Positions 12,091 to 46,473 of a stretch of DNA of 56,765 nt are shown here, piece after piece. The position numbers and the translations under genes are program-made. The notes beneath the pieces were generated by a model. The model was not told the origin of the DNA, did not search any database, and saw only the letters and a program-made list of their open reading frames with translations. The stretch is from Burkholderiales bacterium. GTDB taxonomy: Bacteria; Pseudomonadota; Gammaproteobacteria; Burkholderiales; Burkholderiaceae_E. Numbering within the stretch: position 1 is the stretch's first letter; each line of letters begins with the position of its first letter. The stretch is taken from the NCBI GenBank assembly GCA_947463885.1, contig CANHUQ010000001.1:1-56765 (forward strand), read 5' to 3'.

Positions 12091-13404
12091 TCAAATGCCC
12101 AGTTGCTGCACCCAGTCGATCGCTTGCATCTGAGCCAAGTTCAGTGACTTGGGGGTGAGCTCAAGCGCCTTGCACAAGGCGGCGACTCCACTGAGGGTGG
12201 GGTTCTCGCAAGCCTCGGCGAGCTCCAGATAAGGCGCGAGCACACCGGTGCGCGCCAGGAGTGCTTCAGTCACCATCGGTGGCAGATCCAGGTCGCTGAT
12301 AGCCTGAGCCATCGGCACCATCAGCATGGCCGGCAACAGCGAAAACGTCCCGGCAATGAACAGATTGTCTCGCTGTGCCACATCGAATCGGCCCTCGCCC
12401 AACAGCTCGATCAGACGCCCGCGGGTGATGGCCGTGCGCGCCAGCACCTGTGCAGTCGGGTCACGGCTGTCGGCAGTGGCCAGCAGCAGCGTGAGCCAGC
12501 GGGCAAGCTTGTTGTAGCCAAGCATCGAGATCGCCTGCTTGAGCGAATCAATGCGGGTCGACAGCCCCATGCCGGCTGAATTCATGTAACGCAGCAGCTT
12601 CACCGAGAGCGCGACATCGCGCTTGAGGGCATTGTCGACATCGACCACATCGGCATTGCGCAGCAACAGGCGAATCGCCTGCAGGACCGCTGCCTTGCCC
12701 GGTTCCAGGCGTCGCGCCGACAGCGTCTCGGGCCGTGCGAAGTAATAACCCTGCAGACAATCGAAGCCCAGCTCAAGGCACTGCTGCGCCTGCTCGCGAC
12801 TCTCCACCTTTTCGGCCACCAGCACGCGGCGCCCGCCCATCGCCGTCAGCAGCTTGGCCACGAGCGGCAGCTGGGCTGGTGCAATCCGCTGCAGATCGAC
12901 TTTCGCGTGGCTCGCCAGTGCAAAGAGTGGCGTGCGCAAGGCCGCCGGCGAATCGACCGTGACCGCCACGCCGAAGCCATCCTTGCGCAACTGCGCCAGA
13001 CGCTGCAGTGCCGCCTCGTCGAGCTGGATGTCGCCGCCGAACTCGAGCACGGTACGCCGGGCATCCAGCAGCGACAGCGGGGTGTGTTCGCTCACCGAGC
13101 GCGCGGCCACGTTGACGAATCCCACCTTGCCACCCAAGACTTGCTCGGTACCGATTTCGTTCAACAGTGATGCGATCACCACCAGGCTGGCATGTACTGC
13201 GTCTTCGAATGCCGCCCCGGTGGCCGTGCCATCTGCGCGGTACAGCAGCTCGTAGCCGATCAACTGCTGATGACGGTCCAGGATCGGCTGTCGGCCCAGA
13301 AAGGCCATCTGGTGTGTGTCTTCAAACGCGGGCGCAATGGCTGCGCTCAGCGCCTGGTCACGCTGCTGCGTGGTATGCGCCTCGGTCGTCACGGCTTGCG
13401 TCAT
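12091..13404 (-). CDS. EAL domain + HDOD domain protein (EAL residues largely retained)
   Basis: FLGRQPILDRHQQLIGYELLYR, FVNV, KVDL, AEKVES, LQGYYF, then an HDOD-like region LLRYMNSAGMGLSTRIDSLKQAISMLGYNKLARWL. ATG at 13404 overlaps the upstream stop (ATGA). Confidence 0.8.
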   Translation of the reverse strand: MTQAVTTEAHTTQQRDQALSAAIAPAFEDTHQMAFLGRQPILDRHQQLIGYELLYRADGTATGAAFEDAVHASLVVIASLLNEIGTEQVLGGKVGFVNVAARSVSEHTPLSLLDARRTVLEFGGDIQLDEAALQRLAQLRKDGFGVAVTVDSPAALRTPLFALASHAKVDLQRIAPAQLPLVAKLLTAMGGRRVLVAEKVESREQAQQCLELGFDCLQGYYFARPETLSARRLEPGKAAVLQAIRLLLRNADVVDVDNALKRDVALSVKLLRYMNSAGMGLSTRIDSLKQAISMLGYNKLARWLTLLLATADSRDPTAQVLARTAITRGRLIELLGEGRFDVAQRDNLFIAGTFSLLPAMLMVPMAQAISDLDLPPMVTEALLARTGVLAPYLELAEACENPTLSGVAALCKALELTPKSLNLAQMQAIDWVQQLGI

Positions 13405-14666
13405 GCGCTCACCCCTTGCCTGCGCTCCCAGGCGCGGGGGGTGTCGGCAGGCTCGCTGGTGTGGCGTCTGGCACGAGCCAACGCGCCGACCGACAAAGAC
13501 AGCTCGCTGCACAGTGCCTCGACCCGATCATCGTGTCCGGCCTCTAATGCATCTGCGAGATTGAGCAAGGCACCGAAACGGCCCTGGCGTGCGACCAGCG
13601 CATCGGCCACACCGTCAGGCAATGCCAGGGTGCTGACCGCCTCGGACATGGGCTGCATGAGCAGGGCGGGGAGCATCGACAAGCCGCCGACCAGAAAGAG
13701 GTTGTCCAGATCATGCCCGGCGAAATACTCCGCCCCAAGCAATTCGAGCACCTGACCGCGCAGGGCGGCGCTTTGTCCAAGCCGTCGGGCCGCCGGGGAC
13801 ACATCGTCCACACAGCTGAGCAAGAGTCGCAACCAGCGGGTGAGCCTGCGCATGCCCACCAGCGTCAGCGCATGACGCAGCGAGTCCAGTGGCATGAGCC
13901 GGCCGAAATTGGCCGACGCGATGAACCGCAGCAAACGCCAGCACAGCCCGACATCGCTGCGAAAGGTCTGCTCAATTGCAGACAGCGAGGCGCCTGTGGT
14001 GGCCTGCACCAGCGCCCTGCGCACGGTGTCGTGACACACGCCCAGACGAATCTGGCCCATCGATTCGACCGCACCGAAATGCGCACCCTGAAAGGCATGG
14101 CATCCGATCGCGTGGCTGCGGCTGGCGAGCTCCGGCGAATCGACCGACTCGGCAATCAGGGTCAGACCGCCGCGTGCCAGGCACGCAGCCAACGCATGCT
14201 CCGATCCGGGCGCCAGGTGTTTCATGTCCACCCGCAGGTGCGTCGCCCACCGCATCCAGGAGGCCTTGCGCTCGTCGTGGCGCGGCGCAGGCACAGCGAC
14301 CCCAAAGCCCTGTGTCCTGAGCGCCTCCAGTCGAGTGAGCATCCGGGGATCGTCGGTCTGCATGCTGCTCAGACTGACCACCGTGCGCCCGGGGTCGAGT
14401 CTGCGCAGATCGGTCAGGTCAGGCAGCGCCTGGGAATCGATCTCCAGGAAACCCGTCCGCCCAGCTAAAATGTGATCTGACCCCAGATCTTGCAGGAGGT
14501 TGGACAGCCCCTGGAGATCGGCTCTGCAGGCTGCTCGTTCGGCCTGGTGGGTGCCCTGCGGACGGCGCCACGACAAGCGAAAGCCGGCGAGTTCGCCCCG
14601 GCGATCCATGATCGGCTGTCGATCCAACAGGCTGGCAGTGCATGGTTCCATGGGCACCCACATCAT
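13401..14666 (-). CDS. EAL-like (degenerate) + HDOD domain protein
   Basis: Paralog of the downstream gene: LLDRQPIMDRRGELAGFRLSWR (Glu of the EAL motif replaced), FLEI in place of the Asn motif, then HDOD-like LLRFIASANFGRLMPLDSLRHALTLVGMRRLTRWL. Start taken at ATG 14666. Confidence 0.7.
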   Translation of the reverse strand: MMWVPMEPCTASLLDRQPIMDRRGELAGFRLSWRRPQGTHQAERAACRADLQGLSNLLQDLGSDHILAGRTGFLEIDSQALPDLTDLRRLDPGRTVVSLSSMQTDDPRMLTRLEALRTQGFGVAVPAPRHDERKASWMRWATHLRVDMKHLAPGSEHALAACLARGGLTLIAESVDSPELASRSHAIGCHAFQGAHFGAVESMGQIRLGVCHDTVRRALVQATTGASLSAIEQTFRSDVGLCWRLLRFIASANFGRLMPLDSLRHALTLVGMRRLTRWLRLLLSCVDDVSPAARRLGQSAALRGQVLELLGAEYFAGHDLDNLFLVGGLSMLPALLMQPMSEAVSTLALPDGVADALVARQGRFGALLNLADALEAGHDDRVEALCSELSLSVGALARARRHTSEPADTPRAWERRQGVSA

Positions 14667-14676
14667 CGTAACGGTA

Positions 14677-14703
14677 TGGACACGATTATGTCCAAATCGT
14701 GTC
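14677..14703. promoter_or_regulatory. two overlapping inverted repeats immediately upstream of the EAL-HDOD operon
   Basis: TGGACAcgattaTGTCCA (14677-14694) overlaps GACACGATT-atgtcca-AATCGTGTC (14679-14703). Both are perfect and lie 11-37 nt upstream of ATG 14666. Confidence 0.4.
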
Positions 14704-14840
14704 TGACTGCGTGCAGCACCCGTTCGATGCCGGACCGACGGACAAGCGAGGCCGTCAGTCGGTATCAAGTACGATGCGCCCGTGCCGATGTGTGTCAACG
14801 ATGAGGCCGATTGCGCGCCGCACCACAGCCGTCGTTGCGC

Positions 14841-15824
14841 CTAGAACACGCTCTCGCGTACGAACACCAGGTCATCGGGGCGCACGGGCTCATCAAGCCG
14901 AACCTCCAGGACTTGCACGCTGCCACTGGCCGCACGCCGATGCAGACGCACCCCACGATCGGTGCCGCGCAAGGTCAGCCCACCGCCTTTGGCGATCGCC
15001 TGGGCCACGGTCAGGCCGCGGTCTACGCCGTACATCCCCGGGCGCTGCACTTGTCCATAAATGTAGTACTGGGGCGCGCGTCCGACATAGATCAGGTCAC
15101 CGGCCTGCAAAGCGGGGTCGCGCGCCAGATCGCCGCTGGCGAACATGGCCGCCAGATCCACTTCCAATCGGGCGGCCTGTCCGCTGCGACGGGTCACCAG
15201 CACCACTTCGTCGGCGCCGGCCGGCCCCACGCCGCCGGCCAAGGAGACCATTTCCGACAGGCGCATGCCGGTGGTCTCGATCGGGTAACGACCCGGGCGG
15301 GCGACGTTACCCAGGACGGAGACCTGCTGACTGCGAAACGCGGTCACATTGACGGTGACTTGCGGACTTTGCAGAAAGCGGCCCTGACGCAGCCGCTCGG
15401 CCAGATGCTGCTCCAGTTCGGACACGGACAACCCCGCGACCCGAACCGCACCGATCAGCGGATAAGACAGCACACCGGCTTCCGAGATCCGAGCTTCCAC
15501 AGTCAGGTCAGGACTCTGAAAGACCTGAATGCGCAGGGCATCGCCTGCGCCCAGCCGATAGTCGTCCCGCACGGCGTCGGGCGTGGCGCGCTCTGCCGCA
15601 GGGGCGGCCAGCGCCGACGGTGCCAGCGAAGAGGCCGGCAATACGTTAGGCGGCGACACCGGTGTGGTTTGAGCGATGGCCGGTGAGGACACAGTGTCGG
15701 GTGCGGCCGCAGCGCTGCCCGGCGCCAACCCTGTACAGGCGGCGGCGAAGCTCAGGTACAACGCCAGATGACGGACACCCACACGGCGGTTCAGCCGGGG
15801 GGCAGATGCAGTCGATACCTTCAT
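14841..15824 (-). CDS. outer-membrane polysaccharide export (OPX, Wza-like; Poly_export + SLBB)
   Basis: YRLGAGDALRIQVFQSPDLTVEARISEAGVLSYPLIGAVRVAGLSVSELEQHLAERL is the Poly_export signature; SLBB-like repeats follow. ATG 15824 (MKVSTASAPRLNRR...FAAAC signal). Confidence 0.8.
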   Translation of the reverse strand: MKVSTASAPRLNRRVGVRHLALYLSFAAACTGLAPGSAAAAPDTVSSPAIAQTTPVSPPNVLPASSLAPSALAAPAAERATPDAVRDDYRLGAGDALRIQVFQSPDLTVEARISEAGVLSYPLIGAVRVAGLSVSELEQHLAERLRQGRFLQSPQVTVNVTAFRSQQVSVLGNVARPGRYPIETTGMRLSEMVSLAGGVGPAGADEVVLVTRRSGQAARLEVDLAAMFASGDLARDPALQAGDLIYVGRAPQYYIYGQVQRPGMYGVDRGLTVAQAIAKGGGLTLRGTDRGVRLHRRAASGSVQVLEVRLDEPVRPDDLVFVRESVF

Positions 15825-15898
15825 GCAAGTACTCCTGTGCGAAGTGAGACCCGAACGGCGAGCGTCCGGACAAGGGATCACGCCCATGGCCACCGCAT

Positions 15899-17182
15899 TC
15901 AGAACGCGGTCGACACACCCACACCAGCCCAGCGGTCGGTGAAGTCGTAACCTGGGTAATTGGAGTCGCGTGACAGCTGGCGAACCGAGGCGCTGAGCCA
16001 GGTGCGCCGCGCGATCTGGTAGCGCAATTCGAGCCCGTACTGGCGGAGGTGATCCTCACGCACCAGCCCGCCGCTCAGGGCGGTGCCAGGATCGCCGAGA
16101 TACTGACGATTGGAGTAAGCCACCGTCGCCTCCAGCCGTGTACGCCCGGTGATCTGCCAAGCTGGCCGCAGCGCGACACCGCGGACCTCGATGTAGTTTG
16201 CAGATGGCACCGCGGCCACCTCGATGCTGCGCAACAGCCCGCCTCGCATCACGACAGCGCCCGACAGCGGCCACTCGGCATCCAGGCCCAGCGTCACGCC
16301 GCTAAAGTCACGCTGAGACAGGTTGTCGTATCGGCGCTGCGTGTAGCCCAACTGCCCGGCGATCCGACTGGCATCGTGCGGTCTGTAGGCCAGGCGCACG
16401 AGCGGGGTGTCCTGGGTGTAGGCGTTGTCCACCGCATCGGGCAGCGGGGCCCCGTTGGCATCGACGATCTGTCGATTCGGGTAGCGGGCCGTCTCATGGC
16501 GCCAGACCGCATCGAGCTCCAGCGCACTCTGCGGGGCGTATCGCAGGCCTGCCTCCAGACCGGTCCGGCTGTAGTCGGCCGGCTGCTGGCTCAGCAGCGA
16601 GTTGCTCGCGTAGGTTTCGTCAAACGCTGCAATGGCTGCCCAGGCCTGGGTCAGGCGCAGACCAGCCAGGGCCCTGACACTGGCCAGGGTCTGCAGGTTG
16701 TTCGCATAGGCGCCCACCAGATCGAACGGGGTTTGCTCGCGGCCCACGCGCGCCACCACGTCACCAAACCAGCCGCGACCGATCGCCCAGTTCCAGGTCG
16801 CGCCCAGGCCATAGCCCAGGTAGCTGTAGTCGGCATTGTCCAGGTAGCGCACCGGCACCACGAACGCCTCCAATCCCACCCGCTGCAGTCCGATCACCCG
16901 TTCCAGGCGCACCCCTGCCGTGGCGCGCAACACCGTGTCCGAGGGGCCGCCCGCGACGCGAAAGACGTTGTCGTGCTGCTCGACCTCGAGCGCGCCATGG
17001 ACGGTCAAAACGTCCGGCACCTCCGTAGGCAGCGCCACCGGCTGGGCGCCGACCCCCCCGGCAAGAGCCAGGCATGCGGTTGCCGCACAGGCCTGCGCCA
17101 CTGCGCGGCGGCGCGGGCTGGCGGGGCCAGGCGGCAGGACGGTCAGTGCATCGGACAAGGAGCCAGTTAAAGCATCGGTCAT
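15899..17182 (-). CDS. outer-membrane beta-barrel protein of EPS loci (EpsL / PEP-CTERM-locus-type porin-like)
   Basis: Signal peptide (ACLALAGGVGAQP), alternating beta-strand-like pattern rich in Y/G/R/D, and the terminal ...GVGVSTAF aromatic OMP signature. It is directly upstream of the OPX gene. Confidence 0.55.
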   Translation of the reverse strand: MTDALTGSLSDALTVLPPGPASPRRRAVAQACAATACLALAGGVGAQPVALPTEVPDVLTVHGALEVEQHDNVFRVAGGPSDTVLRATAGVRLERVIGLQRVGLEAFVVPVRYLDNADYSYLGYGLGATWNWAIGRGWFGDVVARVGREQTPFDLVGAYANNLQTLASVRALAGLRLTQAWAAIAAFDETYASNSLLSQQPADYSRTGLEAGLRYAPQSALELDAVWRHETARYPNRQIVDANGAPLPDAVDNAYTQDTPLVRLAYRPHDASRIAGQLGYTQRRYDNLSQRDFSGVTLGLDAEWPLSGAVVMRGGLLRSIEVAAVPSANYIEVRGVALRPAWQITGRTRLEATVAYSNRQYLGDPGTALSGGLVREDHLRQYGLELRYQIARRTWLSASVRQLSRDSNYPGYDFTDRWAGVGVSTAF

Positions 17183-17540
17183 GGCGGTCAGCCTGGCAGG
17201 TGGCCAGCGGCCACGATTGAGACCACCGTAGCAGCCGGACTGCGGAGCGGATACCGCCGTGTCAGCATGGCTGGGGGACCGACGCGGGCACTCCCTCGGT
17301 CGGTGCAGGCAGGCCATCGTCAGTCTGCGCAGCCTGGCCTTTCGGACCGAATCCCGCACTGCTGCACCGCTTGCGGGGGCATGCCCAAGCAACGAGGCGG
17401 TGATGCGGTTGCCGGGGCCTACCTGCTGAGCCGCAGGGCGCCGATAGCAGGGTCAGCCTCACGCCGATCACTGGACGGGGTCTGATCTGACCCCTGCACG
17501 CGCTCACCACCCGTCCTTTCAGATGAGATCTCTCTGCCGA

Positions 17541-18551: not shown

Positions 18552-18561
18552 GTCCGAAACA

Positions 18562-21197: not shown

Positions 21198-22391
21198 ATG
21201 CCCCAGCTCACGTCACACCCGATCCCCCGGTCGGCTGCGCAGCCGCCTGCCGCCCCGACGCACACCTTGCACAACGCGGCGCACCCGGGCGCCCACCGGC
21301 AGCACGCACTATTGGATGCGTCGCTGGGCACGCCCGCGCGGCACGGGGCGAGCCATCATGGCAGTGGTCGGCGGCCGCGCGAGCGGGCACTGCGCAGGGG
21401 CCCGGATCGGGTGCTGATCGTCGGCGCTAACCCGCTGGGGCGCACGCTGGCCCGCGCCCTGCTCCGCCAGGCGCACCCTCGACTGCACCTGGCGGGCTTT
21501 GTGGATGACCGCCTGATTCCACGCGCCGAAGACTCGGCGCAACGGCTGGAAGCGCCGCTGCTGGGCACGACACAGCGGCTGGGCGAATGCGTGCGGGCAC
21601 GTCATATCGATCGGGTGTATTTCGCGCTGCCGATGAGCGCACAACCGCGTATCCGCGCGTTGCTCGAGCAGCTCGGCGACACCACAGCCTCGGTGTATTT
21701 CGTACCCGATATCCAGCTGGCCGAGCCGCTGCGCGTACGGCTGGAAACCGTGGCCGGGCTGCCGGTCGTGGGGGTGTGCGATACGCCGTTTCGCGGCGCA
21801 CGCGCGGTCTACAAGCGCATCTTCGATGTGGCGGTGGCCGTGCCGGCGCTGATCGCCGCAGCGCCGCTGATGCTGGCAATTGCGGCGGCGATTCGACTCA
21901 CGATGCCCGGGCCGGTGCTGTTTCGACAGCGCCGCTACGGCCTGGATGGCGCCCCGATCGAGGTTTGGAAATTTCGCACGATGCGCGTGCAGGAAGATGG
22001 GGCGGTCGTGCGTCAGGCCACGCGGTGCGATGACCGGGTCACACCGCTGGGTGCGTTTCTCAGACGCACCTCGCTCGATGAATTGCCTCAGCTCTTCAAC
22101 GTGCTGCGCGGCGAGATGAGCGTGATCGGCCCCAGGCCACACGCGGTGGCGCACAACGAACATTACCGCCGACTGATTCGTGGCTACATGGTGCGCCACA
22201 AAGTGCGACCGGGCATCACGGGCTGGGCCCAGGTCAATGGCGCGCGCGGCGAGACCGATACGCTGGAAAAGATGGAGCGCCGCGTGGCCTACGACATGGA
22301 GTACCTGGCGCACTGGTCACCGGCGATGGATGTGCGCATCTTGTGGCGCACCGCGGTGCAGGCCCTGCGTGGCGACGACAATGCGTACTGA
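21198..22391 (+). CDS. polyprenyl-phosphate hexose-1-phosphate transferase (WbaP/WcaJ-type Bac_transf), short form without N-terminal TM bundle
   Basis: Rossmann-like RVLIVGANPLGRTL, one TM segment (IFDVAVAVPALIAAAPLMLAIAAAI), then PGPVLFRQRRYG, DELPQLFNVLRGEMSVIGPRP, KVRPGITGWAQV. The start is uncertain: the first ~70 residues are low complexity. Confidence 0.85.
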   Translation: MPQLTSHPIPRSAAQPPAAPTHTLHNAAHPGAHRQHALLDASLGTPARHGASHHGSGRRPRERALRRGPDRVLIVGANPLGRTLARALLRQAHPRLHLAGFVDDRLIPRAEDSAQRLEAPLLGTTQRLGECVRARHIDRVYFALPMSAQPRIRALLEQLGDTTASVYFVPDIQLAEPLRVRLETVAGLPVVGVCDTPFRGARAVYKRIFDVAVAVPALIAAAPLMLAIAAAIRLTMPGPVLFRQRRYGLDGAPIEVWKFRTMRVQEDGAVVRQATRCDDRVTPLGAFLRRTSLDELPQLFNVLRGEMSVIGPRPHAVAHNEHYRRLIRGYMVRHKVRPGITGWAQVNGARGETDTLEKMERRVAYDMEYLAHWSPAMDVRILWRTAVQALRGDDNAY

Positions 22392-33189: not shown

Positions 33190-33190
33190 G

Positions 33191-34537
33191 TCAGCGACTC
33201 ACTCCAAGTTCGGCATACAGGTCGAGCATCGCGCGCAAATAGCCGGCCCGGTGAAAGTGCTGCACCACATGTGCGCGGGCGGCGCGGCCCATGTCGGCTA
33301 CGCGCGCATCAGGCAATGCACTCACACGCGTCAGCGCCGTGGCCAATGCGTCGGCGTCACCGCTGGGGAAGACCCAGCCGTTGTGATCCGGTTCGATCAA
33401 CTCGGGAATACCGCCGATGTCAGCGCCGATCACAGGCTTGCCCAGCGCAAAGCTCTCGAGCACGCTCATGGGTGCGTTCTCGTACCACTCCGATGGCAGC
33501 ACCACCGCTCGGGCACCGCGGATGAGCGCATGCAACGCGTCGCCCGACTGAAAGCCCATGAATTGCGCGTGTTGACCCAGCTGTGCATCGATCTCGCGCA
33601 AGCGCGCCTCGTGGGGGCCGCTGCCGGCAATGCGCAGCGGCACACCGGCTTGCGCCGCCGCCCGCAGCAGCGTGCCCACCCCCTTTTCGGGCGCAAGGCG
33701 CCCGAAATACAGGAAGTAGTCACCCGGCTCGCATCGCGGCACGAAGCGCTTCGCATCCACGCAGTTCGGGATGTATCGGAACTGTTCGCGTGGCCAACCC
33801 CACTCAACGAATTTTTCGAGAAAGAACCGGCTGGGTGCGACGATGCAATTGACCTGCCGCCGATAGGTACCCAGCAGTCCGTGCAAGCCACTCTCGGCTG
33901 CTACCACCGCACTGGCCGACAGCGACTCGCGCACACAGCGATAGCGGATGACATTGAGCACTGAGCCATCGCGGCAACGCTCGCACACGCCGGTCTCGTT
34001 GAGCATCTTGTAGGCCGGACAGGCGATCTTCAGGTCATGCGCGGTCAGCACCACCGGAATGCCGCGCTCACGCAGCACCGGCAGCACAGCCGGCGACAAG
34101 TGGTGATACAGGCAATGCACATGCGCCACATCGGGGCGATACACATCGAGCAGCGCGCGCAGCTTGCGTCGGGCTTCGAATGAATAGATCACCTTACCGG
34201 CCATCAGCAGCTTTTTCCACGCGCTGTAGTGGTGACCGAACTCCAGTTCATCCACGAAGTAATCGGACCACTCGCTGGCCAGATTGCGCGGGTGATGCAT
34301 GGAGAAAAAGGCATTGTCCCAACCCTGGTCGCCCATCAGCGCGGCATGCTGGAAATACACCTGATCCGACCCGCCGCGGGGATAGTGGTAATTGTTGATG
34401 CTGAGCAATCGGGGCGCGCCCGCGGGGCGTCGATGCCCTGTCGGATTCGATAACGGCCTCGATGTTGGACTCGATGTTGGACTCGATGTTGGACTCGATG
34501 TTGGGCTCGATGTCAGGCTCGATGAACGGTGCAGCAT
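33191..34537 (-). CDS. GT4 family glycosyltransferase with N-terminal (SSPT)n repeat
   Basis: GT-B fold with the E-x7-E region (PSEWYENAPMSVLESFALGKPVI). ATG 34537 shares one base with the Wzx stop (TGATG). The N-terminus reads MLHRSSSLTSSPTSSPTSSPTSSPTSRP. Confidence 0.8.
   Translation of the reverse strand: MLHRSSSLTSSPTSSPTSSPTSSPTSRPLSNPTGHRRPAGAPRLLSINNYHYPRGGSDQVYFQHAALMGDQGWDNAFFSMHHPRNLASEWSDYFVDELEFGHHYSAWKKLLMAGKVIYSFEARRKLRALLDVYRPDVAHVHCLYHHLSPAVLPVLRERGIPVVLTAHDLKIACPAYKMLNETGVCERCRDGSVLNVIRYRCVRESLSASAVVAAESGLHGLLGTYRRQVNCIVAPSRFFLEKFVEWGWPREQFRYIPNCVDAKRFVPRCEPGDYFLYFGRLAPEKGVGTLLRAAAQAGVPLRIAGSGPHEARLREIDAQLGQHAQFMGFQSGDALHALIRGARAVVLPSEWYENAPMSVLESFALGKPVIGADIGGIPELIEPDHNGWVFPSGDADALATALTRVSALPDARVADMGRAARAHVVQHFHRAGYLRAMLDLYAELGVSR
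34459..34530. repeat. 12-bp tandem repeat (3 perfect + 3 degenerate copies) encoding (SSPT)n
   Basis: Plus strand CTCGATGTTGGA x3, then CTCGATGTTGGG, CTCGATGTCAGG, CTCGATGAACGG. Confidence 0.85.
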
Positions 34538-36204
34538 CAAGACGGTTGCTCCTCGGGATCGGGCTGAAGTCGGATGAGCAGGGTGTCGCCGGGTGCGATC
34601 ACCTTGAACCCACGCAGCGCCGCAACGAACGCCACAAGCGCTGCCAGCGTGCCCAGGCCAGCGGCGATCGGCGGTTGTGCCAGCAGATCCAGCGCATGCA
34701 GAGCCCAAGACATGGACCAAGACGTGGACCAAGACGTGGACCACGACATGGCCTCAAGCCATGGCGTGACAGCAGGAGCCGTGCCTGTGCACAGCGCGCG
34801 CATCGCCCAGCCCGCGGCGCTCGCCAGCACCATCGTCCACACCAGCCGCTGCCAGCGCGTGAGGCTGAACTGCACGGGATCACCCAGCGCCCGCAGACCA
34901 TGAACCGCCACCGCGATAAACACTCCATCCGTGATCAGCACAGCGATGGGCGCACCGTGCGGGACCCCGGTGTGCGTCAGGAGCAGCACGGAAAGCGGCA
35001 CCGCCAACAGGCATGCAAAGGCCGCACGGGCGAATCGGGCCGAGTGGCCCAGCGTATAGGCCATCAGTTCGGTACCGCGACGCACCGTGTGGCCAGCCAG
35101 CAGCGGCACGAGGCACACCAGCAGCCAGCCTGCGTCATGCACCTTGCCGCGTGACAACATCTGCACCAGCACATCACCCGCGACGACGCTGGCGGTGAGC
35201 ACACCAGCCACCGCGATCAGATTGGCATCGATCATGCGGTTGCAGTCCTGCATGAGCCTGCGCGCATCGCGTCCGCCTGATTCATAACGACCGATAGCTG
35301 CAGGCCGCACCACGCCCCAGAAGAGGTCCATGGGCAGATAGCGACGCGCGGTCTCAAGCAGTCGCACCACGAAGCCGAAACTGGCAGTGGCCTCCACACC
35401 CAGGTGACGCGCCACCAGCGTGGTCATCACATCGGTGCCGATCAGCAGCATCAGCACAATGCTCACGTAGGCATGGACCGCAAAGCGCACTGAAGGCCAC
35501 CCGACCCAGGCGGCGATCGACGGGTCCTGGCCCGCAGCACGCCCCCGCAGATGCCAGCCCAGCCCGACGATGGCCACAATCAACGCCAGGGCGGCCACAG
35601 CGATCTCGATGCGCAGCACCGTAGCGGCCTGCAGCGGCTCGCCCGGTGCTAGCCACGCGACACTCACATAGACCCCCGCGCAGGTGCCGACCACACGGAC
35701 CACCTGCGAGACCTGCGCAATGCGCTGCAGCAGCAGCACCGCCATCAGGCTGTCGCGCAGCACACGTGCCGGGCCCTCGAGCGCCAGCAGGATGCCTGCA
35801 AGTTGCAGCACAGCAACCGGGGCCACCCCGCCCAGCCAAGCTGAAACATGGTCAGCGAGTGTCCACAGCAAGGCGCCGGCCGCGGCATAGGTCACGCAAG
35901 GCAGTGCGCCAAGCCGAAGCACTGCACGGCGCAACTGCGCCGCATTGCCTCGCACCTGAATGCCCGCCAGAGCCGTCTGCATCACCCACTCGACACCGAA
36001 GGTACCCAGCACGACGCCGATCTCCAGCAAGGCTACCGCCGACACATAGGCCGCGTATTGCTCGCGCGGCATGAGCGCAGCCAGCAGCAGCACGAGCAGC
36101 AACGACAGCGGCGCCGTGATGGCCTTGCCGATCGAATAGGCCACCAGGCTCGAGCGCACACGCCCAATGCCATACGGCGCAGCGCGTGAGGTGCCCGGAC
36201 TCAA
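34537..36204 (-). CDS. wzx: Wzx-type polysaccharide flippase (MOP/PST superfamily) with C-terminal SWST repeat and extra TM tail
   Basis: 555 aa, about 12-14 predicted hydrophobic helices, typical basic loop pattern. The TTG start at 36204 overlaps the upstream stop (TTGA); the start is uncertain. Confidence 0.7.
   Translation of the reverse strand: MSPGTSRAAPYGIGRVRSSLVAYSIGKAITAPLSLLLVLLLAALMPREQYAAYVSAVALLEIGVVLGTFGVEWVMQTALAGIQVRGNAAQLRRAVLRLGALPCVTYAAAGALLWTLADHVSAWLGGVAPVAVLQLAGILLALEGPARVLRDSLMAVLLLQRIAQVSQVVRVVGTCAGVYVSVAWLAPGEPLQAATVLRIEIAVAALALIVAIVGLGWHLRGRAAGQDPSIAAWVGWPSVRFAVHAYVSIVLMLLIGTDVMTTLVARHLGVEATASFGFVVRLLETARRYLPMDLFWGVVRPAAIGRYESGGRDARRLMQDCNRMIDANLIAVAGVLTASVVAGDVLVQMLSRGKVHDAGWLLVCLVPLLAGHTVRRGTELMAYTLGHSARFARAAFACLLAVPLSVLLLTHTGVPHGAPIAVLITDGVFIAVAVHGLRALGDPVQFSLTRWQRLVWTMVLASAAGWAMRALCTGTAPAVTPWLEAMSWSTSWSTSWSMSWALHALDLLAQPPIAAGLGTLAALVAFVAALRGFKVIAPGDTLLIRLQPDPEEQPS
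34705..34752. repeat. 12-bp tandem repeat (4 copies) encoding MSWSTSWSTSWSMSW in the flippase tail
   Basis: Plus strand CCAAGACATGGA, CCAAGACGTGGA, CCAAGACGTGGA, CCACGACATGGC. Confidence 0.85.
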
Positions 36205-37538
36205 GAGGGCTCGCCCGATGGTCCGGCCACAGGGGATCGGCAGGCACTGACGTGAGTGCGGGCCACGGCGTGCAGCTGCGCACAGACCTGTTGAGCGATG
36301 ACGTCGTAGCCGCGATGGCGCCCCACCCAGTCACGCGCCGCCAAGGCCTGCCGCGCGCGCTCCACCGGATCGGCATCAAGCAGTTCAAGGATCGCCTCGG
36401 CAAAGGCCTGGGCCTCGAAGGCCACCACCCGTCCGCCGCCGCTGGCGCGCACCACATGTGCCTGATCGGGCTGGTCATTACAGACCACGGCCAGCCCGCA
36501 GGCGATGTATTCGACTGCCTTGGTGGGCGAGCCCACTTCGGTGAGCGGCGTACGCGGCACCGGCGAGACACCGATCTGCGCGCGACGCGCGAGGGCCAGC
36601 GCCTGTTGCGGTGGCAGCCGACCGGTGAAGTGCATCCAGGGCAATGCGCCGGCGCGTTCGGCGGCCTTGCGTAGGGCCCCGACATCGGCCGGTTCATCGG
36701 CCTCGCCGATCACCAGCAAACGGAAGTCCGGGCGTCGGCTGGCCACTGCAAGCGTGGCATCGATCAGCATCTCCAGGCCGCGCGCGCGATCGAGCGTGCC
36801 GAGGTACACCGCCCAGGGCGCAGGGTTCGGCGCGACCGACGAGGTCTGCGCCGTGCTGTCGATCAAGCCCTTCGGCAGGATGGCCGCAGGCTCAGGCAGA
36901 TGCGTCAGGTCGACGCCCATGGGGACGGCGCTGGCACGCGCATGCTGCAGCGGCCCGGCACGCAAGCCATCAAGCATCGCCTGCGACTGCACGAAGAGCC
37001 AATCGGCGCGTGGCACCAGCACACGCGCCAGGATCTGCTGACCGAGTGTTCCCCGACAGCGCAACCAGAGCCTGCGCACCCGCGACACCGGCGCATCACG
37101 CCGTGCAGCGAGCCACAGGTAGTGCTCGGGCAGCGGATACGACATCCAGTAGCAAAAAGGCACGCCCGCCCTGCGCGCGGCCAGCCAGCCGATGACACCC
37201 AGCACCGGCTTGTCGCGCACGATCAGCAGGTCGCACCCCTGTCGACACAAGGCAAAGAGCTGCCACTGCTGCAGGAAGTCGAGCACCGGCGCAGGGACAT
37301 GCCCGCGCACGCGACGCAGATGAGCGCGGCCTGCAGTCCAGGTGGAGGGAGCATCTGCGTCCGCTGGCGCGCCGGGCGATGTACGATCGACCACGAGCTC
37401 TGTGCTGCCCAGCGCCAGCAGATCGACCTGCACGCCCAGGGCTGGCAGCATCCGCCCGAACAGCACCGCCACATCCGGGCGATGCGTGGGATGCGACTCG
37501 GCCGTGGCGAGCAGGACCCGCAGTGACGACAACGTCAT
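36201..37538 (-). CDS. GT4 family glycosyltransferase
   Basis: MTLSSLRVLLATAESHPTHRPDV..., C-terminal FTGRLPPQQALALARRAQIGVSPVP...GSPTKAVEYIACGLAVV. ATG 37538 overlaps the Wzy stop (ATGA). Confidence 0.8.
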   Translation of the reverse strand: MTLSSLRVLLATAESHPTHRPDVAVLFGRMLPALGVQVDLLALGSTELVVDRTSPGAPADADAPSTWTAGRAHLRRVRGHVPAPVLDFLQQWQLFALCRQGCDLLIVRDKPVLGVIGWLAARRAGVPFCYWMSYPLPEHYLWLAARRDAPVSRVRRLWLRCRGTLGQQILARVLVPRADWLFVQSQAMLDGLRAGPLQHARASAVPMGVDLTHLPEPAAILPKGLIDSTAQTSSVAPNPAPWAVYLGTLDRARGLEMLIDATLAVASRRPDFRLLVIGEADEPADVGALRKAAERAGALPWMHFTGRLPPQQALALARRAQIGVSPVPRTPLTEVGSPTKAVEYIACGLAVVCNDQPDQAHVVRASGGGRVVAFEAQAFAEAILELLDADPVERARQALAARDWVGRHRGYDVIAQQVCAQLHAVARTHVSACRSPVAGPSGEPS

Positions 37539-39142
37539 GCGGCACCTGCAGGCACGCGGCGCCAGCGCCAGGCAATCAGACCCAGGATCGTGGCCATGAT
37601 CACCTGCAGACTCGCTGCCAGCATCAACAGGTCCATCGCCAACCACATCGGCACGATCAGCAGCACCGCGGCACGCAAGCTGCGGCACAGGGCGCGATCG
37701 GCCCCGGGCGCCGCCTGCTGCACCAGGCGGCCGGCGGCGCGCCAGGCCCCCACCAGCATCGCCACAAACAGCGTGACGCCAAACAGGCCGATCTCCCAAA
37801 GCTGGGTCGCCAGGGCCGTCAGACCAATGGAGTAGCCGGGATAGCGCCGGTCGATGTGACCGAGCCGCTCACTGCCGCGCGAGCCGTGTGCCGAGCCCAG
37901 GCCATGTCCGAACACGGTGCCCAACGGATCATTCAGGCCATGGCGACTCCACCAGAACGGCACCACGTTGCCGCGGTTCAGGCTCGCACCGCCGAAATAG
38001 CCGCGCTGCCCCACGTTGTATTCGAGGTTCTGCTCGAAGCGCTGGCGAAAGCTCATGCCTGTGCGCCCGTTGTCTACCTGCAGCGCCACGTACGAATAGA
38101 ACAGCGCGGACACCAGCACGAGCGTGACCAGCGCACCCGCGACAAACGCGAAGGGTCGGCGACGCGCAGCATCGGCATACAGCACGCCCAGCCCCAACGG
38201 CAGCAAGACCAGCACCATCTTGGTCTCGCCCAGGGCAATTGGCGCGACCACCATCAGCACCAGGGGCCACAGCCACCGGTCGCGGATCAGCCCTTCGCGC
38301 CGCGCCGCCAAGAGGCCGATCAGGATGCACACCAGAAACAGCGCCATCACGTTGTCGTTGGCACCGCCCGTGATCGAGCCCTCGAAGGTGCCGGCCACGA
38401 TGTCCACCGGCACGACCTCATTGGGCATGTTCATGCGCAGCGGCACGAGCACGATGCGCTGGTACAGCGCAAACGGCAGTTGCAGTACGGCCAACAGCAG
38501 CACGAAGCGCAACCAGCCGCGCACCTGCTGCACGGTGAACGGCACCGCTGCAAAGGCGAACATCACGCCCCAGTACTGATACTGACGCTTGAGGGCACTG
38601 ACGCCTTCATCGATCGGGCCGGCACTGAAAGCCACGCTCGCCACGGCGTACACCATGGCCAGCACCGCCAGCATGACGAACCCGGGCACCGGTGGGCGCA
38701 ACCCGCGCACGGCCGTGCGCCCCGGTGTCGCCAGGCCGACGCGCGCAGTCCCCGCGTGCAGGACGGCCACGACGATCAGGAACAGGCCCAGCATCGAAAA
38801 CAGCCACGCCAGGCGGGCGAACTGGGGCTGATGCATGACCAGCGGCCCTGTGATTGCGAGGGTGCCCACCAGCACGATCCACACCACCAGCGCCGGCGCA
38901 TTGAGCAACAGCACACCCAGGATCGTGCCCAGCACCAGACCGCTGGCCACCAGATTGCCCGTGGCCATCACCGCAGCGCCCAGGCTCGCCGCCAGGGCAA
39001 AACCCAGGACGGTCGCCAGCGTGCCCAGGCCGGGCAAGGCGTCGCGCAGGCTGGCCCATCGGCTCAACAGCCAGCCCTGCAGCCGGGCTGCGCCCCGCAC
39101 GGTCGCATTCGGTGCGCCGTGCACCCCTTGCAAAGACAGCAT
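37535..39142 (-). CDS. Wzy-type polymerase / O-antigen-ligase-like integral membrane protein
   Basis: 535 aa, more than 10 hydrophobic helices with one larger loop. Positioned between the BY-kinase and a GT in a Wzx/Wzy-type operon. The call rests on topology and context. Confidence 0.6.
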   Translation of the reverse strand: MLSLQGVHGAPNATVRGAARLQGWLLSRWASLRDALPGLGTLATVLGFALAASLGAAVMATGNLVASGLVLGTILGVLLLNAPALVVWIVLVGTLAITGPLVMHQPQFARLAWLFSMLGLFLIVVAVLHAGTARVGLATPGRTAVRGLRPPVPGFVMLAVLAMVYAVASVAFSAGPIDEGVSALKRQYQYWGVMFAFAAVPFTVQQVRGWLRFVLLLAVLQLPFALYQRIVLVPLRMNMPNEVVPVDIVAGTFEGSITGGANDNVMALFLVCILIGLLAARREGLIRDRWLWPLVLMVVAPIALGETKMVLVLLPLGLGVLYADAARRRPFAFVAGALVTLVLVSALFYSYVALQVDNGRTGMSFRQRFEQNLEYNVGQRGYFGGASLNRGNVVPFWWSRHGLNDPLGTVFGHGLGSAHGSRGSERLGHIDRRYPGYSIGLTALATQLWEIGLFGVTLFVAMLVGAWRAAGRLVQQAAPGADRALCRSLRAAVLLIVPMWLAMDLLMLAASLQVIMATILGLIAWRWRRVPAGAA

Positions 39143-39154
39143 CGTGTGCCCCGA

Positions 39155-40066
39155 TCAGACCGCGTTGAGCGTGGCGCCCAGCACCCGGATACCGCTGTGC
39201 CCCAGGATCGTGGTGAGTTGCGTGATGTCGCTGCTGCGGGTGCGGCCGGCACGCCCGACAACGATGGCGGCGCCCGCGCGCTGTGCAATCACCTGCGCAT
39301 CGGACGACTGCTGGGCTGAAGGCGTATCGATCAGGATCGCATCGAAGCGGCGCGACAATTCATCGAGCAGCCTGGGGAAGTCGCCCCGCCCCAGCAACTC
39401 CTGCGGATTGGGCGGCAGCGGCCCGGAGGGCAAGAGCGACAGTCCGTCCAGACCCGGCACCGGTGCGATCTCATCCAGGCCGGCGCGACGGCTGAGCACG
39501 CCCGCAAGGCCCATGCGATTGGGCAGTCCGAAGAGTTGATGCTGAACCGGCTGACGCAAATCGGCATCGATGATCAGCGTGTTCTCGCCCAGATGCGCAA
39601 ACACCACGCCCAGATTGGCGGTAGTGAAGCTCTTGCCGTCACCGCGATCGACACTGGTGATCGCAAGCGCCGCCTGACCAGGCGTGCCATCAAACCAGCG
39701 CAGACGCAGTTGGCTGCGCAGCGCGCGCAAGGCTTCGGCATACGGCGACGCCGGTTGGCAGGCAGCGGCCAGTCGAGCCGACAAGGTGCGGCGCAACGGA
39801 TCCGGTGTGGCATAGCCGAATTGCAGCGCCAGTGCATCGTCGATATCACTGGACACCACAAAGCCCAGGCGCGTGGCCACCTCACCGAAGCGGTGTCCCC
39901 CGCGCGCCTGCTCGGCAAGAACGCTCGCCAACTGGGCGGTACTCAGTCGCCCTCGCGCATTCAGAATCTGGCCAATGCGCATATCGGCGCTGGCTTTGGT
40001 GTGCTCGCTGATGCGCGTGACCTGCGCACCGCGACCCAGTGGCTGAACGACTCCGGTCGATGTCAT
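39155..40066 (-). CDS. BY-kinase-family P-loop ATPase (EpsG-like chain-length regulator component) with N-terminal MshEN-like motif pair
   Basis: Walker A SVDRGDGKS, A' LIIDADLRQP, B DAILIDTPS. ATG 40066 is preceded by AGGAG. There is no Tyr in the C-terminal tail. Confidence 0.8.
   Translation of the reverse strand: MTSTGVVQPLGRGAQVTRISEHTKASADMRIGQILNARGRLSTAQLASVLAEQARGGHRFGEVATRLGFVVSSDIDDALALQFGYATPDPLRRTLSARLAAACQPASPYAEALRALRSQLRLRWFDGTPGQAALAITSVDRGDGKSFTTANLGVVFAHLGENTLIIDADLRQPVQHQLFGLPNRMGLAGVLSRRAGLDEIAPVPGLDGLSLLPSGPLPPNPQELLGRGDFPRLLDELSRRFDAILIDTPSAQQSSDAQVIAQRAGAAIVVGRAGRTRSSDITQLTTILGHSGIRVLGATLNAV
39821..39979 (-). other. tandem 24-residue MshEN-like (c-di-GMP binding type) motifs with 5-residue spacer
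   Basis: RIGQILNARGRLSTAQLASVLAEQ / ARGGH / RFGEVATRLGFVVSSDIDDALALQ, compared with the consensus RLGxx(LVI)(LVI)xxG(LVI)(LVI)xxxxLxxxLxxQ. Confidence 0.55.
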
Positions 40067-40160
40067 AACGGCTCCTGCGGGTGCTCGGTGAAAAGTGGCG
40101 TCATCGGACGCAATCGGGGCGGCAAGGCGCAACGCCTGGCGCAGCGTGATACGCCCGGGA

Positions 40161-41585
40161 TCAGGGACCCAGTTGCAAATTCGGCGCAGGCAAACCCGGC
40201 GCGGCATTACCGATCAGGCGCTGCGGACGCCGCGAGTCGGCGCGTGGCAGCACCGCCAGCACCGGCACCTGGCCGGCTTCCTGCAAATCCTGTGCGGTAC
40301 GCACGGGCCGGTTCATGGATTCAAGCGTCAGCGCAGCGAGCACCGCCAACAGCGTCCCGAACGCTGCACCGGCCAGCGTATTGATCGCCAGCTTGGGGCG
40401 GAACGGTTCGACCGGCACCGACGCCGGCGTGAGCACGGCGATGTTGGAAGGCCGCGCCTGGCTCTCCAGGCTGGTCTCGGTGAACCGCTGGGACACCAGA
40501 TCGAGCGCCCGCTGCGCGCCCTGCACTTCGCGCTCCAGCACCTGCAACTGGTCGCGCGAGGCCTTGAGTCCAGCCACCCGGTCGCGTTGGGCATCGAGCA
40601 GCGTGCGCAACTCGGTTTCGCGGCGCAGATTGATCTGATTGCCGGCCACGATGCTGCCGCCTACTCGCGCGGTCTCGGTCTGCAAGCGCGCACGCAACTG
40701 ATCGACCTCGGCCTGCACGGACTGATGCTCGGGATGCGCCGGGCCGAGCCGCGTCGAGAGTTGCTGGAGGCGGGCTTCAGCCCGCCCCAGGTCACCCGAG
40801 AGCGTCTGCAGCAAGGGGTTGCTCACCACCTCGGGCATGGAAGCACTGCTGCGCTGCGCGGTGTCGGCCCGCGAGCGGCTATCGGCCAGGGCCGCCTGCA
40901 CGGTCACCAACTGATTGGTGAGATCAACGAGCCGCACGTTTTCGACGTCCAGTCGCTCGTCACTCACCAGAATGCCACTGGCGCGCTGCGCCGCAGACAG
41001 CCTGCGCTGAGCAGCGTCGAGCCGATCGCGATAGGTGCGGGTCTGCGACTCGAACCAAGTGCGAAAGCCGGTAGCCGGCCCGGTCTTGAGCTCCATCGCG
41101 GTGTCGATGTAAGCCCGTGCAAAGGCGTTCACGACCGCAGCGGTCAGCTCCGGATCAGGGCCTTCATAGGCCACGACCAGCGTCGTGCCTTCACGCGAAG
41201 CATCGACCGTGAGGCGACGCTCGAAGTGGCGCAGGATGCGGCTGCGCGCTGAGCCGAGCGCCTGCCCGGCATCGGCCGTGGCGACGGCAAGCATGGTCGC
41301 GCTGCTGTCGAGCGAGAGTGCATCGATCACCCGATTCATCACGCGCTCGCTGCGGATGATTTCCGACTGCGTGACCAGATGCCCCTGAACGGTCTGAGCC
41401 ATGGCAGCCGCACCACCCAGCACCGGATCGGTGTTGCGCACCTCCACCACCAGCGTGGTCGAGGCCTGATACTTCGGTGTGATCACCAGACTCACGCCGA
41501 TGCTGGCCGCGATCGCCGCTGCGATGATCAGCAGGATGATTCCGAAGCGCGCCTTCAGAATGCGCAGAAACTGTTCGACGACCAT
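40161..41585 (-). CDS. polysaccharide chain-length determinant (Wzz/PCP, EpsF-like)
   Basis: MVVEQFLRILKARFGIILLIIAAAIAASIGVSLVITPKYQASTTLVVE (Wzz N-terminal TM plus motif), a long coiled-coil periplasmic region, and a C-terminal TM. GAGG RBS. Confidence 0.85.
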   Translation of the reverse strand: MVVEQFLRILKARFGIILLIIAAAIAASIGVSLVITPKYQASTTLVVEVRNTDPVLGGAAAMAQTVQGHLVTQSEIIRSERVMNRVIDALSLDSSATMLAVATADAGQALGSARSRILRHFERRLTVDASREGTTLVVAYEGPDPELTAAVVNAFARAYIDTAMELKTGPATGFRTWFESQTRTYRDRLDAAQRRLSAAQRASGILVSDERLDVENVRLVDLTNQLVTVQAALADSRSRADTAQRSSASMPEVVSNPLLQTLSGDLGRAEARLQQLSTRLGPAHPEHQSVQAEVDQLRARLQTETARVGGSIVAGNQINLRRETELRTLLDAQRDRVAGLKASRDQLQVLEREVQGAQRALDLVSQRFTETSLESQARPSNIAVLTPASVPVEPFRPKLAINTLAGAAFGTLLAVLAALTLESMNRPVRTAQDLQEAGQVPVLAVLPRADSRRPQRLIGNAAPGLPAPNLQLGP

Positions 41586-41806
41586 GGGCTGACCTCGTCT
41601 GCACCGGGCCGACGATCCGGCCCGTGGCGCCGGGCCTCGTGAGGGCTTGGCGGCGCGAAGTCATCATGCACAGGGTTTGTGGTGCGCAGCGTGCGCCACG
41701 TATGAGTGCACGCCGCAGTGCCGCGTCAGAGCACAGCGCGTGCGCTCGAGCTTCAGAACTCAGGCAGGTCCACTGTGTGACTCAGCGGCGAATCAGCAGC
41801 AGCTCC

Positions 41807-41869
41807 GTCGCATGTCGCATGTCGCATGTCGCATGTCGCATGTCGCATGTCGCATGTCGCATGTCGCAC
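41807..41869. repeat. heptanucleotide microsatellite (GTCGCAT)8 + GTCGCAC
   Basis: Perfect 8-copy array confirmed by the periodic MSHVACR translation in two ORF-track entries. It lies between the rfbD stop (41884) and the Wzz start (41585). Confidence 0.95.
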
Positions 41870-41883
41870 ATGTCACACGCCGA

Positions 41884-43334: not shown

Positions 43335-43362
43335 CTCGACAACCTCCGCGCTCGGGTGTGAA

Positions 43363-46155: not shown

Positions 46156-46260
46156 GATGCGGCCCGCTTCGCGCAGCAGGGGATGACCTGCTTCGCCTGG
46201 GCTGGGTCGGTGCGTTGCGTGCGGCCAAGGCCGCTGCGGGCGCGTGCGATACTCGAAACG

Positions 46261-46473
46261 ATGAAAATCATCATTGTCATGGCGTTCGTGGGCATCATCG
46301 GCAGCTTGTTGTCTGCGCTGTTCTTCATGATGCGCGACAAGGGGCGCACACGTAATACCGTGCGTGCCCTGAGCATACGCGTCGGGCTGTCAGTGGCGCT
46401 GTTCCTGTTCCTGATGGTCTCGTATTACATGGGCTGGATCGAAAGCCGTGGCGTGCCGATCGGCGCACCCTGA
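46261..46473 (+). CDS. twin transmembrane helix small protein (DUF2909), 70 aa
   Basis: MKIIIVMAFVGIIGSLLSALFFMMRDKGRTRNTVRALSIRVGLSVALFLFLMVSYYM. Internal ATG of the 45505..46473 track ORF. Conserved opposite-strand position next to SURF1. Confidence 0.75.
   Translation: MKIIIVMAFVGIIGSLLSALFFMMRDKGRTRNTVRALSIRVGLSVALFLFLMVSYYMGWIESRGVPIGAP

Follow-up and report, generated by a model that had tools for sequence, protein, structure and literature searches.

Post-translational control of polysaccharide secretion by cyclic di-GMP (c-di-GMP) is established for synthase-dependent systems, such as those of BcsA, PelD, Alg44 and NfrB, and we know of no demonstration of such control for Wzx/Wzy-dependent pathways. 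Here we examined an epsG-like gene on the minus strand of a 56,765-nucleotide stretch of DNA from a Burkholderiales bacterium (contig CANHUQ010000001.1, positions 1 to 56,765; this whole stretch is hereafter called the window). As judged from sequence profiles and structure prediction, its product, EpsG, joins a homologue of MshEN_N, a subdomain of the c-di-GMP-binding ATPase MshE of Vibrio cholerae, to a P-loop domain with the fold of bacterial tyrosine kinases (BY-kinases), and is a candidate c-di-GMP receptor in an exopolysaccharide (EPS) pathway of the Wzx/Wzy type.

The architecture had been described before. Wang et al. 2016 (PMC5013675) listed 'MshEN_N - AAA_31' proteins from beta- and gamma-proteobacteria, with Methylobacillus sp. 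EpsG (BAC55137) as the example, in Supplementary Table 4 and placed EpsG Mfla_2024 in the c-di-GMP-binding column of Supplementary Table 3. According to a footnote these binding assignments are motif-based predictions save for a few tested proteins, EpsG not being among them, and a note in the same paper describes EpsG as MshEN_N joined to a non-T2SSE ATPase, the proposed chain-length tyrosine kinase. A curated NCBI hidden Markov model (HMM) of the domain also exists. An earlier reading of the window from its sequence alone (the original prediction) had proposed direct c-di-GMP sensing by this protein; its interpretation is partly supported here, the idea being right but not new, since Wang et al. 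2016 lists the architecture and predicts the binding. EpsG of Methylobacillus sp. 12S and M. flagellatus resembles the EpsG studied here in its two-domain architecture, its EpsF partner and the presence of EpsE and EpsL export genes nearby. There, however, the exosortase EpsH/XrtB follows epsG, at the place where the window encodes an unclassified membrane protein of 535 amino acids, and the EPS genes of the window, unlike those of Methylobacillus, form two separate blocks around genes for cytochrome-oxidase assembly.

Other described systems share one domain or the other. MshE (5HTL) and T. thermophilus PilF (GSPII-B) are like EpsG in the 53-residue tandem motif, the bundle predicted for EpsG and the ligand-contact positions, but EpsG has only the MshEN_N subdomain, and its output domain is a P-loop of the BY-kinase fold rather than a hexameric T2SSE secretion ATPase. 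Proteins with MshEN_N only, such as Bd2402, bind c-di-GMP (PMC5013675). In E. coli NfrB, a glycosyltransferase of family GT2 followed by MshEN, such a domain is likewise attached to an exopolysaccharide biosynthesis protein, and c-di-GMP is reported to control polymer formation there at the post-translational level (PMC8669469). We noted a weak cross-match of EpsG to region 486-545 of an NfrB model. NfrB, however, is synthase-dependent with the receptor on the synthase, whereas the pathway here is of the Wzx/Wzy type with a putative receptor on the cytoplasmic partner of the polysaccharide co-polymerase (PCP). In a 2025 review on how chain length is controlled, c-di-GMP comes up for synthase-dependent systems only.

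The P-loop domain has the same fold as S. aureus CapA/CapB (PCP-2b) and E. coli Wzc (PCP-2a), with a template-modelling score of 0.73-0.83 to the target and a root-mean-square deviation (rmsd) of about 2 A. The likeness extends to the Walker A, A' and B and ExxRxxR motifs and to a split architecture with a two-transmembrane partner bearing a cytoplasmic tail; the differences from CapB and Wzc are that EpsG has no Tyr-rich tail, that no phosphatase gene was detected with it and that it carries an extra N-terminal MshEN_N. EcpK of M. xanthus and HfsB of C. crescentus are stand-alone, tail-less BY pseudokinase partners of kinase-less PCP-2 proteins, proposed to work without tyrosine phosphorylation, which raised the question of how the co-polymerase cycle is driven (PMC12004946). 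EpsG is tail-less like both, and most of the wider EpsG family also lacks the Walker A lysine; in contrast to EcpK, which has neither Walker motifs nor a ligand-binding domain, the EpsG of the window keeps all Walker motifs together with MshEN_N.

An MshEN_N homologue at the N-terminus of EpsG

The longest minus-strand open reading frame (ORF) spanning the motif region runs from 39155 to 40207. We chose the ATG at 40066 as the start; AGGAG lies upstream with a spacer of 5 nt, where the original prediction had counted 6, and the resulting 303 amino acids equal the length of a 99%-identical database protein. The ATG at 40207 was tried and rejected: translation from it would overlap epsF, and it is unlikely because the near-identical protein is called at 303 amino acids and EpsG homologues are mostly about 290-320 amino acids long, a few having longer N-terminal extensions. 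Hydropathy analysis of the 303-residue protein revealed no transmembrane (TM) segment. The EpsG model TIGR03029 aligned over positions 2-273/274 (273/274) with 287.4 bits, short of its equivalog cut-off of 313.8, while the broader TIGR01007 was passed at 142 bits (cut-off 108) and CapB (4jmp) was matched at E 3.8e-33. The protein is probably a member of the EpsG family and a soluble cytoplasmic partner of EpsF.

Residues 30-82, encoded by 39821-39979 of the minus strand, form two 24-residue motifs around a 5-residue spacer, the coordinates and translation being as originally reported. The curated NCBIfam model NF053729 ('cyclic di-GMP-binding domain-containing protein, MshE-related'; 53 positions) aligns over its full length with these residues and scores 42.3 bits (cut-off 38; E 4.6e-11). 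When the window was translated in all six frames, the tandem core pattern R.G(6)G(13)Q(5)R.G(6)G(13)Q was seen once, with 1.6e-4 occurrences expected by composition, and the single-motif pattern twice, both times here, with 0.018 expected. When the single EpsG sequence was compared with the PDB it found PilF at 4e-6 and MshE (5HTL) at 0.0066. A profile built from 30 family N-termini found PilF at 2e-24, PilB at 1.6e-9 and 5HTL at 2.7e-9, and below E 1e-3 it returned no proteins other than MshEN/GSPII. MshE and PilB are two of the three proteins with which the original prediction had suggested an alignment; the profile's alignment with MshE has no gaps from R30 (MshE R9) through Q82 (MshE Q61); 19 of 53 residues are identical between the tandem motif of EpsG and that of V. 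cholerae MshE. By these profiles and the models described below, residues 30-82 are a true MshEN_N homologue.

The residues of MshE that stack on c-di-GMP, form hydrogen bonds with it or hold it in position, turn residues included, are R9, L10, G11, G18, L25, L29, Q32, R38, L39, G40, G47, L54, L58 and Q61 (Wang et al. 2016, PMC5013675). Their equivalents in EpsG are R30, I31, G32, G39, L46, L50, Q53, R59, F60, G61, G68, I75, L79 and Q82, of which 11 are identical and 3 conservative, position 2 of motif II being Phe where MshE has Leu. In an alignment of EpsG with its 120 closest homologues (121 sequences), G32, Q53, R59, F60, G61 and L79 never vary, and 120 of the 121 have Q82. Position 1 of motif I varies between R, K and L in the family, which fits the consensus as extended in work on PilF, where this position was widened to R/K/L. 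The spacer between the motifs is also variable, some relatives having 6-7 residues; its length is not strictly fixed, since the homologues at loci L013 and L015 have 7 (RSPDERG and RSPDERA, respectively).

For conservation over a wider range we used a HMMER search of 1.84 billion representatives, which gave 890 clusters (50% identity) below E 1e-30; family counts here and below refer to the best 150 of these 890 clusters (representatives at 50% identity, P0121-P0270). G32 is kept in 142, Q53 in 132, F60 in 144, G61 in 142, and L79 and Q82 in 139 each, and overall the c-di-GMP contact residues are retained in about 83-96% of representatives.

An AlphaFold2 model of EpsG was built with a 60-sequence alignment and reached a mean confidence (pLDDT) of 85; a second model, of residues 24-100, reached 81. 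Helices are predicted at 31-37, 43-56, 60-66 and 72-82 with pLDDT 88-96 across the models (91-96 by block in the full-length one), followed after the linker by a Rossmann-like P-loop domain. Foldseek matched the whole model to the kinase domains of CapAB, Etk, Wzc, BceF and VpsO (E 1e-14 to 1e-18, rmsd about 2 A; 1e-15 to 1e-18 for CapAB, Wzc and Etk). In the PDB the 24-100 model was closest to 5HTL, the c-di-GMP complex of MshE (rmsd 0.7 A, 55 columns, 34% identity), and the 16 matches after it were GSPII domains of PilF or N-domains of PilB, most of them in complex with c-di-GMP. As expected for so short a domain the E-values of this model are modest (0.016-0.5), but the ranking is unambiguous, the top 17 matches all being MshEN/GSPII domains. 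The models thus predict for EpsG the four-helix MshEN_N bundle for which the original prediction had suggested a check.

A BY-kinase fold without a tyrosine-rich tail

A C-terminal tyrosine-rich tail is the defining feature of BY-kinases, and ExxRxxR is their ring-oligomerisation motif. The motifs GDGKS, IIDADLR and ILIDTPS are present in EpsG as originally claimed, but the description of the protein as an 'ordinary' ATPase of the BY-kinase family did not survive. The window EpsG has no Tyr-rich tail, because the protein, which ends in ...LGATLNAV, stops 2 residues past the LN motif of the last strand; its only two tyrosines are Y85 and Y109, with none after residue 109. The alignment with CapB reaches the end of EpsG and CapB runs about 18 residues further. 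A tail was found in none of the 120 close homologues, many of which end in a single ...LNEY, whereas canonical BY-kinases from the same genome scan lack the MshEN motif and carry 3-7 Tyr within the final 30 residues. Among the 150 representatives the last 25 residues contain no Tyr in 107 and one in 41 (at most one in 148 of 150).

The ring-oligomerisation motif is kept throughout (E111 in 143 representatives, R114 in 149 and R117 in 147). The Walker A lysine K145, invariant in the window's own clade, is present in only 22 of the 150 and replaced in 128 (~85%), by Arg in 95 and Cys in 11, and the MshEN signature stays conserved although most representatives are without this lysine. Y85 is the only well-conserved tyrosine; 91 representatives have Tyr at this position and 31 have Phe. 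The public names 'tyrosine autokinase' and 'tyrosine kinase EpsG' given to these proteins are probably misleading for the family.

We also looked for a cognate phosphatase, in the window and in 17 related loci from Burkholderiales metagenome-assembled genomes. The low-molecular-weight protein tyrosine phosphatase (LMW-PTP) signature C.G[NS].CRS occurs in no frame of the 56.8-kb window or of the 17 loci. No phosphatase is among the 25 commonest Pfam families of 81 flank ORFs from 7 loci, a list that leaves out families seen once, so that single occurrences are possible; PHP-type phosphatases were not specifically searched for.

For nearly all of the 150 representatives the alignment begins at about residue 25-30 and runs to the C-terminus, so that both domains are present. 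Six are single-chain fusions of 747-847 amino acids with the order Wzz - GNVR - MshEN_N - P-loop (P0153, P0194, P0216, P0249, P0259 and P0260), in which MshEN_N comes after TM2 of the co-polymerase and before the P-loop ring; an example of the fused form is Ampullimonas aquatilis WP_424192292.1, and one fusion is annotated 'EpsF'. P0188, a metagenomic protein of 327 amino acids, is the sole one of the 150 in which the motif and the Walker A lysine occur together with a Tyr-rich tail (5 Tyr among the last 25 residues), which is possibly the ancestral state. The architecture extends beyond the beta- and gamma-proteobacteria named in 2016, since an alphaproteobacterial homologue in Sphingomonas oleivorans FW-11 (L020:10001-10810) keeps the tandem motif (RIGELL...Q / LFGEIC...Q), with a degenerate Walker A (GADEATPVS) and no tail. 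Taken together, loss of the tail, loss of the Walker lysine with the motif conserved and the fusions point to c-di-GMP rather than tyrosine phosphorylation as a possible switch of this family. The family-level loss of tail and catalytic lysine with the motif kept is the part worth following up.

The exopolysaccharide locus

Coordinates of the features discussed are collected in Table 1. By hydropathy, EpsF has two TM segments (16-34 and 399-417), a periplasmic domain of about 365 amino acids and a cytoplasmic tail of about 55. The original prediction had placed epsG between a chain-length determinant and a 'Wzy-like' polymerase. EpsF is indeed encoded directly upstream; the polymerase assignment rests on position and hydropathy (about 11-13 hydrophobic segments with a hydrophilic loop of about 100 amino acids), and neither the putative Wzy nor the putative Wzx protein matched any Pfam or NCBIfam family, even at E<=1. 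The genes for EpsF, EpsG and the membrane protein are adjacent in 17 of 17 related loci and in that order in 16; in the remaining one, L011, they are rearranged, with the membrane-protein gene inverted and upstream of epsG. The closest loci are from freshwater Burkholderiaceae bins (99% and 96% identity). The window also encodes Ugd, RmlABCD and several glycosyltransferases of family GT4.

Table 1. Features of EpsG and of the surrounding locus in the window
Feature	Coordinates	Strand	EpsG residues	Remarks
epsG-like gene	39155..40066	-		303-aa predicted cytoplasmic protein
EpsG N-terminus			1-24	disordered in AlphaFold2 model
MshEN_N (predicted four-helix bundle)			30-82	
MshEN motif I	39908..39979	-	30-53	RIGQILNARGRLSTAQLASVLAEQ; aligns ungapped to MshE R9-Q32
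Spacer ARGGH	39893..39907	-	54-58	5 residues
MshEN motif II	39821..39892	-	59-82	RFGEVATRLGFVVSSDIDDALALQ
Linker after MshEN_N				poorly defined in AlphaFold2 model
P-loop domain, BY-kinase fold			about 106-303	
ExxRxxR motif EALRALR	39716..39736	-	111-117	ring oligomerisation; E111, R114, R117
Walker A GDGKS	39629..39643	-	142-146	K145 = 39632-39634
Walker A' IIDADLR	39554..39574	-	165-171	
Walker B ILIDTPS	39317..39337	-	244-250	
C-terminus VLGATLNAV + stop	39155..39184	-		end 2 residues past LN motif of last strand
epsF, PCP-2b-type chain-length protein	40161..41585	-		TIGR03017 419.2 bits (cut-off 422.75); Pfam Wzz match
Multi-pass membrane protein, putative Wzy-type polymerase	37535..39142	-		535 aa; position and hydropathy
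Multi-pass membrane protein, putative Wzx-type flippase	34537..36204	-		555 aa; about 10 hydrophobic segments
epsE, outer-membrane polysaccharide export (OPX)	14841..15893	-		TIGR03028 319.1 bits (above cut-off 262.65)
epsL-like outer-membrane beta-barrel	15899..17392	-		TIGR03014 241.3 bits (cut-off 275); Pfam BBP2_2 match
Initiating phosphoglycosyltransferase, WcaJ type	21198..22391	+		TIGR03023 460 bits (above cut-off 410.75)
EAL-HDOD protein 1	12091..13512	-		divergent EAL; ExLxR (YELLYR), EKVE, QGYYF kept
EAL-HDOD protein 2	13401..14798	-		degenerate EAL; FRLSWR, no catalytic Glu, below Pfam cut-off

The two EAL-HDOD genes that had been noted in the neighbourhood of epsG exist, but they lie 25 kb from it, next in line downstream of epsL-epsE and sharing their strand, and one is degenerate. 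EAL-HDOD protein 1 keeps most catalytic residues, but KDGFG replaces DDFG; each of the two might sense c-di-GMP instead of acting as an enzyme. Scanning for GGDEF, DDFG[TAS]G, HD-GYP, LMW-PTP and E[GK]VE...QG by regular expression, a crude test, gave as its sole match in the window the last pattern, in EAL-HDOD gene 1, and the first four had no match in the 17 loci. In the Pfam scan of flank ORFs described above, the 25 commonest families comprise only glycosyltransferases and sugar-modifying enzymes. No exosortase family matched among the ORFs scanned, which were not every ORF, and PEP-CTERM proteins were not searched for; an Rfam scan of the window detected no RNA of any kind, riboswitches included.

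The EPS genes of the window fall into two blocks (9982-22391 and 32035-45326) that flank or interrupt a cytochrome c oxidase cluster (22499-25291 and 45406-52475). The order is COX2-COX1-COX3-SURF1, rmlBADC-epsF-epsG through the glycosyltransferases, CtaA-CtaB-SCO1, and then the phosphoglycosyltransferase, Ugd, epsL and epsE. SURF1 and rmlB also adjoin in L002, L003, L005, L006 and L008, and CtaA lies downstream in L009 and L010. Within the EPS block, between epsL and a sugar epimerase gene, a sigma-70-family factor of 298 amino acids (regions 1.2, 2 and 4) is encoded at 17655-18551 on the plus strand. In a stretch of about 3 kb at 28824-32087 the long ORFs tested on both strands had no Pfam match at E<=1; its G+C content (0.65-0.70) is ordinary.

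A proposed mechanism and its alternatives

Starting from the computed homology, predicted fold, conserved contact residues, synteny with epsF and fused forms, and taking ligand binding, affinity, direction of output and mechanism by analogy from MshE, PilB and NfrB, we think it reasonably likely that the MshEN_N of EpsG binds c-di-GMP in the MshE manner and gates EpsF/EpsG-dependent polymerisation and export. EpsF and EpsG would together form a bipartite co-polymerase of the PCP-2b type, and MshEN_N would bind one c-di-GMP, each 24-residue motif holding one guanine through its R/I(F)/G start, two C-terminal hydrophobic residues and terminal Gln. Occupancy by c-di-GMP may then alter assembly or oligomerisation of the P-loop ring, ATP use or docking on the EpsF tail, with the result that Wzy-dependent polymerisation and export via EpsE/EpsL would be switched on at high c-di-GMP. 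That c-di-GMP binding has replaced phosphotyrosine cycling as the switch for assembly and disassembly of the co-polymerase ring, making the EpsG family phosphorylation-independent PCP-2 partners, is a more tentative suggestion, possible rather than probable in our view, and is supported by the absent tail, the mostly replaced Walker lysine and the retention of ExxRxxR and of the contact residues.

Several observations weigh against the proposal that EpsG is a c-di-GMP-gated co-polymerase partner. The profile search of the N-terminus suggested with the original prediction gave a divided answer, since NF053729 scored above its cut-off but Pfam PF05157 (T2SSE_N) had no match at E<=1, either with the whole protein or with residues 1-104. 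The MshEN_C subdomain (T2SSE_N1, alpha/beta) is absent, residues 83-105 running straight into the P-loop domain. We did not take the Pfam result as a refutation because NF053729, the PDB profile and the predicted fold agree and because the T2SSE_N model covers both MshEN subdomains, one of which is missing here. The MshEN signature had been called complete; this holds for the 14 contact and turn positions but not for N36 (I-7), R40 (I-11) and T65 (II-7), core 'h' positions without ligand contact that fall outside even the relaxed published motif, [RKPN]hGxxhhxx[GAS]hhxxxxhxxxhxx[Q..]. R40 is a real caveat, as the substitutions listed for XpsE, a non-binder, include the equivalent I19R; in the family, as seen in the 120 close homologues, this position is nevertheless normally R or K. 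No GGDEF, EAL or HD-GYP signature was detected by the crude regular expressions within 10 kb of epsG in the 17 related loci, so that there is no genomic coupling to c-di-GMP turnover besides the distant EAL-HDOD pair. The direction of regulation is pure analogy. In the literature searched we found no experimental c-di-GMP binding or domain function for an EpsG-type protein, in agreement with the original prediction, and the experimental gap it pointed to appears real.

The same features bear on the alternatives. The N-domains of GspE and XpsE bind GspL, and Xanthomonas PilB binds PilZ; EpsG might in this way have retained the MshEN_N fold and lost nucleotide binding, the domain serving as a docking or structural module, for example for the EpsF tail or the polymerase. 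Binding has been lost in XpsE and in many further MshEN domains, PilB(N)-PilZ complexes are among the Foldseek matches of the EpsG N-domain, the domain lies in the fusions exactly between membrane and P-loop ring, and the R40 and Pfam results point the same way. We nevertheless consider this unlikely: non-binders lose their Gly and Gln as well as the Leu triads, whereas here both Gln, both motif-start Gly, F60 and L79 are the best-conserved positions of the family, each kept in at least 132 of 150 representatives, and a pure docking surface needs no pseudo-twofold ligand signature. Rather less probable still is a conventional BY autokinase in which phosphotyrosine cycling is the main switch and the N-domain fine-tunes it, the acceptor being perhaps Y85 or another protein such as Ugd or the phosphoglycosyltransferase. 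The intact Walker A, A', B and ExxRxxR motifs of the window's clade, the conservation of Y85, the public annotation and P0188 would all suit such an enzyme, but the tail is missing from EpsG, its 120 close homologues and 148 of 150 representatives when canonical BY-kinases of the same scan have one, the Walker A lysine is mostly replaced, and neither the window nor the 17 loci showed an LMW-PTP signature.

Very improbably, the N-domain binds another nucleotide such as 3'3'-cyclic GMP-AMP (3'3'-cGAMP). MshEN binds cGAMP weakly (PMC5013675), and the second residue of motif II is an invariant Phe where MshE has Leu, which would suit a different ligand; specificity in MshE, however, comes from backbone amides after each Gly that read guanine O6/N7 (PMC5013675), and both half-sites of EpsG look guanine-specific because the RxG/RFG starts are both kept. 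That a helical Leu/Gln-rich segment resembles a loose consensus by chance, as might be feared from a consensus made up mostly of hydrophobic or unspecified positions and from the Foldseek E-values obtained with a 77-residue model, we regard as ruled out for practical purposes by the HMM, profile and pattern statistics: the NF053729 match, the family profile hitting MshE, PilB and PilF only (2.7e-9 to 2e-24), a tandem pattern seen once at an expectation far below one, and its conservation in hundreds of clusters.

Cultivable hosts exist for both arrangements, Methylobacillus and, for the fused form, Ampullimonas aquatilis. EpsG-type proteins join two questions, the control of Wzx/Wzy pathways by c-di-GMP and the function of tail-less BY pseudokinases. 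If the more tentative suggestion, a c-di-GMP switch in place of phosphotyrosine cycling, is true, such a switch would be the missing regulatory input for BY-pseudokinase systems and would answer the question raised for EcpK and HfsB, and EpsG would be, to our knowledge, the first direct second-messenger receptor inside a Wzx/Wzy machine.

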